Shown here in pieces: positions 57,622-59,513 of a DNA stretch of 59,513 nt (position 1 is its first letter; every line of letters starts with the position of its first letter). The position numbers and the translations under genes were made by a program. Origin of the DNA: an uncultured archaeon (GTDB lineage: Archaea; Asgardarchaeota; Lokiarchaeia; Sigyniarchaeales; SOKP01); NCBI GenBank assembly GCA_964388035.1, contig CAYLZE010000020.1, positions 1 to 59,513 on the forward strand, read 5' to 3'. A model generated the notes under the pieces. It was not told the DNA's origin. It saw only the letters and a program-made list of their open reading frames with translations, and did no database searches.

Positions 57622-58092
57622 TTAGCAAGCAATCTCGCTCTCTAGGATCTCTTTCATTTTTTCGCGTAATTCTTTTTTGATTGCAGACATTTCATAAGTT
57701 TTAATTCCCAATTTTGCTTGTATTTGCTCAGCACTTAAAGCATCATTGAGGTCTTGTTTATTAGCAATAGCAATGACCTTGGATCCTAAGTTGCGAGAAA
57801 ATCTATTGTAAATCTCTTTTGTTTTTTGAAGATTTGCTTCGGTAGAGTCGCAAACTAATACAGTTAAGCCCGCCCCTTTTAAAAAATCTTCCCACATGAA
57901 TTTAAAGTGCTCTTGCCCGCCACAATCCCATATAGCGCACTTTTTTCCATTTAACACCGAGCCCTCAATTTCTAATCCAATAGTCGGAGAACTATTGCTA
58001 TCTTTTCCCAAAAGGAGTGAAACCAAGGAAGTTTTGCCTACTCCCGAATTTCCAATAAAAACAATTTTATTTTTTGACAGTTCTACATTCAT
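57622..58092 (-). CDS. Minimal Arf-like small GTPase
   Basis: GNSGVGKT, PTIG, WDCGGQ, ANKQDL, MSA; ATG at 58092 preferred over 58140. Confidence 0.9.
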   Translation of the reverse strand: MNVELSKNKIVFIGNSGVGKTSLVSLLLGKDSNSSPTIGLEIEGSVLNGKKCAIWDCGGQEHFKFMWEDFLKGAGLTVLVCDSTEANLQKTKEIYNRFSRNLGSKVIAIANKQDLNDALSAEQIQAKLGIKTYEMSAIKKELREKMKEILESEIAC

Positions 58093-58252: not shown

Positions 58253-58561
58253 ATGGTTGTTAAAGAAACTTGAAAATTGGAGATGAAGAACCCATTTAAC
58301 ACTCAAGAGGCTACCCTGTATCTCTCGCATGCAGGTGATATGGTCACGGGTAAAATGGAATCTCGTAATGATATTAGTGAGATTAAAGATGTAAAGCTTG
58401 AGGATGACATTTTGACGTGGAAAGCTTCAAGAAAAATCCTGACTTTTGAATTCAATGCTAAAATTGATGGTGACACCATGTCAAGTACAGTAAAGAGCCG
58501 TCTTGGCAAAGCGACTCTTAAAGGCACGAGAATTGCACGTAATAGTGTTGAATCATCCTAG
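58253..58561 (+). pseudogene. Small beta-barrel-type protein gene interrupted by an in-frame TGA at the position of an expected Trp
   Basis: MVVKET*KLEMKNPFNTQEATL...GDMVTGKM...LTWKA...FEFNAKIDGDTMS...KGTR resembles a bacterial family starting GTW.L...TPMG. Confidence 0.55.
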
Positions 58562-58636: not shown

Positions 58637-58715
58637 AATTTTTATATTACCTATTAAAATATCCCGGACAGCAAATCTTCCCATTTCTGGAATTCTTATA
58701 TTACCTATCAAAATA
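58637..58715. repeat. Two 25-nt direct repeats (23/25 identical) enclosing a segment copied from tuf
   Basis: 58637-58661 vs 58691-58715; 58659-58694 matches 58902-58937 at 34/36. Confidence 0.9.
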
Positions 58716-58849
58716 AAATGGTATGATTATAATTATTAAGTATCCAATAATTGAAAATTAAAAAAGTAATGGGAAACAAAAAAAAGCATAAAAAATGGAT
58801 AAGAAAAATATATTTTCTAGAATTAAAAAAATTAGATGTATGAATTGAA

Positions 58850-59513
58850 TTATTCTCCGGGAACCAAATCCCTTACAATTCCCACTGCAACAGTACGCCC
58901 CATATCTCGAACAGCAAATCTTCCCATTTCTGGAATTTCGGCATACTTTTCAATGCAAAGCTTCTTTATGGGTTTTAATTTAACAATTGCCGAATCATTT
59001 CTTTTTAGGAATTTGGGATTGTCCTCAATCACGGCATTTGATTTTTGGTCAATTTTCTTGCTTAATTCTATGAACTTAGCCGCAACTTGTGCTGTATGAG
59101 TGTGAACTACGGGGGTATAACCCTGTGCAATTGCAGTTGGATGCCAAATTACAATAATTTGCCCCGTCCATTCACCAGTTGGATTAACCACCGTTGGTGG
59201 GTTGTCAATGTGACCTAAGCAATCACCACGGCCTACATCTTTAATTTGCAAACCACGAATACTAATTCCCACATTATCTCCTGGAAGTGCTTGAAGAATT
59301 TCTTCATGGTGCATTTCAATGCTTCTTATTTCACCTTGAAAATCAGTTGGTTTAATGATAATTTTATCGCCTTTCTTTAAAATTCCCGTTTCTACTCTAC
59401 CAACAGGGACTACTCCTGTACCCTTGATCTTGTAAGCATCTTGAATGGGAAGGCGTAAAGGCTTGTCTGTAGGTTTCTCAGGGATTACTAATTGATCTAG
59501 AGCTTCTATTAAG
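58850..59513 (-). CDS. tuf: Translation elongation factor 1-alpha (5' part runs off the window)
   Basis: Frame open to the edge: DKPLRLPIQDAY...PVGRVETG...EMHHE...PGDNVG...GYTPV...GRFAVRDMGRTVAVG. Confidence 0.97.
   Translation of the reverse strand, partial: LIEALDQLVIPEKPTDKPLRLPIQDAYKIKGTGVVPVGRVETGILKKGDKIIIKPTDFQGEIRSIEMHHEEILQALPGDNVGISIRGLQIKDVGRGDCLGHIDNPPTVVNPTGEWTGQIIVIWHPTAIAQGYTPVVHTHTAQVAAKFIELSKKIDQKSNAVIEDNPKFLKRNDSAIVKLKPIKKLCIEKYAEIPEMGRFAVRDMGRTVAVGIVRDLVPGE

Follow-up and report, generated by a model that had tools for sequence, protein, structure and literature searches.

A 36-nt fragment of the EF-1alpha gene set between direct repeats behind tuf in a Lokiarchaeia genome: probable debris of templated insertion at a recombination hot spot

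The window, by which we mean the whole 59,513-nt stretch of DNA that was analysed, is contig C20 in a Lokiarchaeia-type metagenome bin, which has a size of 5.47 Mb, a GC content of 33% and a completeness of 96.7%. Its end is occupied by the 3′ half of tuf (58850–59513, minus strand), the only EF-1alpha match in the genome, which is without an intron-like insert and which runs past the window over a 10-N scaffold gap (C20 59514–59523) situated inside the gene directly past the window end. Following the tuf stop codon is a T-rich tract (58720–58849, minus strand), from its sequence a presumed terminator, and just beyond it the repeat unit with which this analysis is concerned. Next come a small gene of unassigned family on the plus strand (58253–58561), convergent to tuf and without a Pfam match, and an Arf/Ras-like small GTPase gene on the minus strand (57622–58092). 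The small gene has a premature TGA at 58271–58273, which is TGG in a strain seen in sequencing run X7, and its homologues in other Lokiarchaeia lie downstream of an aminotransferase gene. Because the GTPase gene is found directly 3′ of tuf in the closest relatives and the small gene is elsewhere located by the aminotransferase gene, the tuf–GTPase interval must have gained extra DNA; the small gene is probably cargo of a hot spot. GC skew gives no firm sign of a replication origin adjoining tuf, as its minimum near 50–52 kb tracks gene orientation.

The unit has the layout X-T-X. X is a 25-nt AT-rich target that is present twice (58637–58661 and 58691–58715, neither copy assigned a strand), and T is a 36-nt copy of tuf in tuf orientation (58659–58694, minus strand) corresponding to the codons at −87 to −52 from the stop. 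The template segment (58902–58937, minus strand) lies in EF-1alpha domain 3 and its end is 6 nt before the Arg codon that bears an intron of bulge-helix-bulge (BHB)-like type in two relatives, L171 and L217. The first-pass annotation of this DNA had reported direct repeats at a 54-nt period, and on re-measurement the two copies of X match at 23 of 25 positions with that period. The match to tuf that it described was likewise reproduced: T and its template agree at 34 of 36 positions at a spacing of 243, with 27 contiguous identities, and the two mismatches (58664/58907 and 58667/58910) are both synonymous and in third codon positions. T has 3 nt in common with the left copy of X and 4 nt with the right copy, confirming the junction microhomologies that had been pointed out; read in the direction of tuf, the entry joint from X to tuf has the 4-nt microhomology (58691–58694, minus strand) and the exit joint from tuf to X has the 3-nt one (58659–58661, minus strand). 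Both parts are beyond chance, with E 2.2e-8 for the match of T to tuf in a genome-wide search, while 500 shufflings of the intergenic sequence never produced a 25-nt direct repeat better than 21/25. The unit is positioned 156–191 nt 3′ of the tuf stop. X, which has no structure, was found nowhere else in the genome at up to three mismatches, and a genome search showed this to be the sole X-T-X of such type.

A trivial explanation would be that the unit is an assembly artefact, given that the source is a metagenome bin with a scaffold gap within tuf. Single contigs, however, run across the unit in three sequencing runs and in an assembly from JGI: Logan contigs from run X1 cross it with one difference, a Logan contig from run X2 covers the unit and the tuf target with no differences, and the JGI contig L084 matches at 100% identity along 1933 nt. 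X1, X2 and L084 are possibly from the source campaign and so not independent, whereas X7, from 2023 sediment, belongs to a separate study and contains a diverged strain with the unit, having 19 differences in 362 nt and an alignment with a single 1-nt gap and no joint that skips the unit. These contigs, the diverged strain among them, together with the fact that T is not identical to tuf, make an artefact exceedingly improbable. As the unit is present in the approximately 5%-diverged X7 strain, it predates the split of the two strains. Over the duplicated positions (X against X and T against tuf) 4 of 61 differ, which is close to the strain divergence in the spacer (19/362) and fits what neutral decay would give, without proving it.

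An early comparison with 29 relatives had led to the reading that the unit was a pure one-off insertion, and this was overturned when recurrence was found later. We collected 220 tuf loci, of which 205 had enough downstream DNA, and these fell into 183 lineages at 97% identity. Pieces of tuf of 22–77 nt are found downstream of tuf in 11 of the 182 other Lokiarchaeia lineages (about 6%), mostly just past the terminator, with most fragments 67–228 nt 3′ of the tuf stop. Internal pieces of 22–46 nt occur in eight lineages (L097, L107/L278, L112/L279, L133, where there are two, L135, L152, L171 and L274), and displaced tuf 3′ ends are seen in L154 (twice), L171, L188, which is a closed 6.04-Mb genome, and L283. 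The fragments occur in both orientations, their flanks are unrelated, and their sources range from −671 to −18. No fragments were found of 741 neighbouring genes, upstream of tuf or in reversed controls. Control loci (thermosome, enolase, FbaB and EF-2) gave 0 of 112 (Fisher p 0.0045 with the pooled query and 0.02 with the own-gene query), the control sets being small, with fewer pooled queries than tuf. Several further matches were discarded: that upstream of tuf in L010 is its own first exon, and those in L009, L219, L167, L268 and L258 are of low complexity or marginal.

The internal copies are mostly 30–36 nt long (three are exactly 36), they cluster at three tuf sites, and those of L097 and L107 have nearly identical ends. 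A flanking direct repeat above background accompanies just two of nine internal copies. Mismatches in the internal copies are at third positions in 42 of 61 cases (p 0.002 against 0.5), and all six in the L097 insert are synonymous. Within the genome under study, non-coding copies of one kind or another lie close to about 25 of 4282 genes; they are mostly paralogue remnants or displaced ends, and two or three are tuf-like cases. We conclude that the process that leaves such fragments is general but enriched at tuf.

Some observations made alongside touch on the same subject. In the genome under study, 33- and 34-nt own-gene copies lie past the terminators of fbaB and of an acyl-CoA dehydrogenase-like gene (G000 C16:10560–10592, L286, and C19:53378–53410, L287), with the tuf-like pattern and without flanking repeats. 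In L182 the rps10-like gene that follows tuf has its 3′ end duplicated in a codon-divergent copy of 118 nt, situated 387–504 nt after the tuf stop, in the displaced-end pattern. Among 29 loci of another Asgard family, L440 has a weak 37-nt tuf-like piece (81%, 36.5 bits) at +106 to +142 from the tuf stop. A further Asgard order gave no match at the threshold used, a result that is uninformative on absence there.

Three of the relatives offer clues to mechanism. L112/L279 has a 75-nt insertion relative to L121 and L126, in which a target duplication of about 29 nt accompanies a tuf piece of about 46 nt. This makes it a second X-T-X, with 4-nt microhomology at the right joint, and the outgroups L121 and L126, which carry one X, represent the pre-insertion alleles. 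For the unit in the window no such single-X allele was found, the nearest relatives being only about 75% identical. The L112 insert differs from the host tuf by eight mismatches, all synonymous, and since the outgroups have the host's codons at these sites the template was the tuf of another species. The same insertion is found in decayed form in the sister species L103. In L283, tuf is nearly identical to that of relatives until about −150 and then only about 75% identical: a foreign 150-nt tuf end is followed by 970 nt of cargo and then by the displaced resident end from −43, after which the DNA is again 92% identical to relatives. L171 has a patchwork of an inverted piece, a direct piece, a fold-back hairpin and a displaced end, which is typical of iterative template switching. 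Separately, L121, L126, L147, L155, L202 and L270 have an in-frame, codon-divergent duplication of 21–24 nt at the tuf C-terminus, probably a recombination joint that is still translatable.

The repeat-spacer-repeat appearance had led to the proposal of a mini CRISPR-like array or guide RNA. The genome contains an orphan CRISPR array at a contig end (C29:48768–49350, L035) with a 37-nt repeat, a duplicated spacer pair and spacers of 38–41 nt between 36-nt repeat cores; these spacers match nothing else in the genome. Comparison of X with the genome's CRISPR repeats, as had been suggested, shows X to be unrelated to the C29 repeat, with a local score of only 6. It had also been noted that the window holds no cas or integrase gene. 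Across the whole 96.7% complete genome there is no match to Cas1, Cas6_C or RAMP (cas1, cas6 and RAMP searches only), and the sole tyrosine recombinase match is on C48. X-like multi-hit arrays are absent from 161 genomes of the class and do not rise above the control in 400 genomes of the phylum. The exact T site has a second copy in this genome only among the 161, barring contig-end duplicates, in a search whose patterns diverged copies escape. No X+T junction was seen in the metagenome contigs searched, a set from which close kin of this genome are possibly missing. Viral contigs yielded only unrelated tandem repeats for X-gap-X, and neither a tuf relative nor a tuf 3′ end. There is no Rfam match over the unit, neither X nor the unit shows more structure than shuffles when either strand is folded, and the flanks of the recurring copies share no repeat or PAM (the best pairwise flank score, 10, is within background). 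The mini-CRISPR proposal accordingly falls on the unlikeness of X to any array repeat found, on the cas genes not found and on the lack of a flank or PAM common to the copies.

Several candidates from these searches were set aside. Matches to X in the 400 Asgard genomes are at the level of reversed controls, single copies and mostly coding or chance; X-gap-X matches in the class are leucine-rich-repeat and enolase coding sequence; and the one match to the tuf site in viral contigs is a chance match in a GC-rich phage capsid gene. A TATA-like box in X was dismissed as promoter of a full guide because the start would fall inside T, and a sigma-70 promoter scan is unsuited to archaea.

A related possibility is that T acts as a functional antisense or homing guide, its plus-strand RNA pairing with tuf mRNA or DNA, or that it is the leftover homing spacer of an element; transcription may come by read-through of the convergent small gene or from a promoter of its own. 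In keeping with this are the 36-nt length of T, the third-position bias of 42/61, which is compatible with a spacer from an earlier host, the retention of the unit in two strains, and the use by three lineages of the same tuf site ending 52–60 nt before the stop. In CAST systems that spacing would suit insertion just 3′ of the gene. Yet the copies are without a common repeat, PAM or structure, some match sites as far as 671 nt inside tuf, the homologous copy decays between L112 and L103, and, as above, cas genes, a viral tuf site or X-like unit and an Rfam match were not found. We therefore regard a guide function as unlikely.

Off-target spacer integration by Cas1-Cas2 (neo-CRISPR), in which a spacer-sized tuf piece enters an ectopic site and the target is duplicated, would explain the X-T-X layout, and T is near the spacer length of the genome's own array. 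The presence of an orphan array on C29 and the length of the L112 insertion, whose 75 nt equals the local CRISPR period, can be added to this. The target duplication is nonetheless 18–25 nt here and about 29 nt in L112 as against a 37-nt repeat to which X scores just 6, joint microhomologies are unexpected, repeated landing beside the donor gene would have no reason, and cas1 was not found in the 96.7% complete genome. This origin is very unlikely.

The tuf genes themselves contain inserts of 24–33 nt in 23 of 217 cases, at about six positions, and these are mostly hairpins in conserved motifs. That of L171 (SDBV01084065.1), 30 nt long and 78–48 nt before the annotated tuf end, splits the Arg codon of Met-Gly-Arg-Thr, and L217 has an insert at the same site. 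By inspection the L171 insert would form a canonical bulge-helix-bulge in which cuts at two sites restore the frame, and the computed fold gives the stem. The older of the two displaced tuf ends of L154, 137–228 nt after the stop, includes one half of the L217 intron although the two lineages are unrelated (86% over 66 nt), which suggests that intron-bearing tuf ends move laterally between lineages. Matches to EF-2 with in-frame stops were also noted in G004, G229, G013, G006, G024, G275, G023, G193, G180 and G005, possibly short introns like those of tuf.

The insert site of L171 and L217 is 6 nt from the end of the segment copied into T. In principle the unit could record a past site-specific integration, or cleavage by a homing endonuclease, near the Met-Gly-Arg-Thr codons, brought about by elements that carry a replacement tuf 3′ end in the manner of icd/e14, with T as break-repair debris. 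Displaced ends start at or just past the site, copies of the T type end 6–15 nt before it, BHB-like introns occupy it in L171 and L217, and cargo lies between new and old ends. Against this, the starts of displaced ends in relatives (−43, −47, −52, about −61/−68 and −85) spread over 40 nt, unlike a fixed att core, and the exchange in L283 is from about −150. Integrases are absent near tuf in the loci read, the genome has no LAGLIDADG_3 match and only the recombinase match on C48, the viral contigs searched contained no integrase or element with the site, and no viral contig carries a tuf 3′ end. T also stops 52 nt short of the gene end, unlike an att duplicate. The att-site scar proposed in the first-pass annotation is half borne out: a fixed core is lacking and T is internal, yet in relatives foreign tuf alleles and cargo do enter the tuf 3′ end. 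An integration or endonuclease scar is for these reasons a doubtful explanation.

Equally doubtful is a dedicated system, of Asgard archaea or a mobile element, for the capture of spacer-sized (30–46 nt) tuf fragments, in many cases those of another species. It would place them past the terminator either as guides against tuf or as by-products of the insertion and spread of BHB introns in tuf, which are themselves roughly 30 nt.

Templating by RNA must also be weighed: the abundant mRNA of tuf, or cDNA made from it, would be copied into breaks that arise where the tuf transcription unit ends. The donor is always tuf and never the equally close GTPase gene or other neighbours, the copies lie just past the terminator, L171 uses sites 400 nt apart, and short inserts are frequent in tuf (23/217 genes). 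Such templating leaves the foreign alleles unexplained (L112 with 8/8 and L097 with 6/6 synonymous mismatches, and L283), the presumably abundant mRNAs of thermosome, EF-2 and enolase leave no copies, and the genome has no reverse transcriptase above cut-off. We hold it to be quite unlikely.

The reading that we prefer, with a probability of roughly 60%, is that the unit was left behind by recombination or repair that was anchored in tuf and mediated by microhomology, at a hot spot of exchange between species, and that it is a templated insertion without function. A DNA end, nascent or broken and proceeding in the tuf direction, would first copy X, then switch at the 4-nt microhomology to tuf as its template (either the host's own gene, which lies 243 nt back, or the paired strand of a close relative), copy 36 nt of tuf, and return at the 3-nt microhomology to the start of X, so that X is duplicated. 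This template could have come from the host itself or from a close relative, with two mismatches either way, T having two mismatches to its own tuf, two to that of L193 and three to that of L094. The conserved 3′ region of tuf would anchor DNA of other Lokiarchaeia by homology-facilitated illegitimate recombination (HFIR); completed events would leave tuf with a foreign 3′ end, followed by cargo genes and the resident end in its displaced position, and aborted events would give the 22–46-nt patches just beyond the terminator, where they would be tolerated. Products within tuf would be lethal unless in frame or spliced, and survivors would therefore pile up just past the terminator. Template switching had been among the suggestions of the first-pass annotation and is the best-supported mechanism for the junctions, with microhomology at both joints here and 4 nt in the second X-T-X of L112; its premise that a repeat unique to one locus marks a one-off event misses the recurrence across Lokiarchaeia. 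We infer the template-switch path, the DNA uptake, the enzymes and the absence of function; Ku was not found in the genome and no competence or repair enzyme was identified. Some features sit less easily with templated debris. The narrow length range, the reuse of three tuf sites and the shared ends of L097 and L107 look targeted, which is partly, perhaps not wholly, an effect of detection, as short or poorly conserved fragments fall below it, and inverted copies require an extra switch.

If the unit is indeed such debris it has no function itself, but the pattern to which it belongs is sequence evidence of DNA exchange between Lokiarchaeia species at EF-1alpha. The 3′ end of this gene, which is in use as a marker in the phylogeny of Asgard archaea and of eukaryotic origins, can therefore be mosaic. 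The same exchange would be a candidate route by which introns of the tRNA type spread laterally among tuf genes; for tRNA genes, the way in which Asgard archaea acquire BHB introns has been described as an open question (bioRxiv 10.64898/2026.10.13.758758). A limited search of the literature found no description of tuf fragments behind tuf in archaea.

Several known systems resemble the unit in part. Mini-CRISPR arrays, CAST homing spacers and CreA/CreR-type RNAs, taken by their generally known features, share with it the repeat-spacer-repeat form, a spacer-like length and a match to a conserved host gene, but the X of the window is unrelated to the host array, too short and without a 3′ handle, no cas was found, and the flanks differ among copies. 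Att scars of the icd/e14 type are similar in having a foreign synonymous allele and, in relatives, displaced 3′ ends, and differ in that there is here no fixed core, no integrase was found and T falls short of the stop codon. Casposons have been reported at the 3′ ends of aEF-2 genes. Serial replication slippage, FoSTeS and synthesis-dependent MMEJ are known mainly from eukaryotes. The templated insertions that they give (named in PMC3597517 and PMC2943611) share a nearby template, microhomology at the joints, a duplication flanking the insert and fold-back synthesis as in L171, but foreign alleles are not explained by these processes alone. In SPDIR (10.1101/2023.11.22.568220), single strands of intra- or extragenomic origin likewise yield patches, 3 to about 100 nt long, with microhomology joints; existing sequence is replaced in the process, and no tie to the neighbourhood of the donor is described for it, whereas here there is a 25–29-nt target duplication and recurrence by the donor gene. 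HFIR is invoked in PMC5361080, which cites de Vries and Wackernagel 2002 and Prudhomme 2002, to account for orphan Rhs 3′ ends and for T6SS effector genes that have been displaced. In both situations a conserved upstream anchor takes foreign DNA and the resident 3′ part is pushed downstream, as in L283 and L154 at tuf, and L283 has the full HFIR layout of a homologous joint in the anchor, a foreign tract with cargo and an illegitimate joint back to resident DNA. HFIR has been shown experimentally in transformable bacteria, while the present case concerns an essential translation gene in Asgard archaea, and the unit in the window is a short internal patch with target duplication and no displaced end. 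We conclude that, on the features tested, the unit stands outside the CRISPR mini-array and att-site families and behaves like a templated insertion made through microhomology, at a hot spot that resembles those of HFIR.
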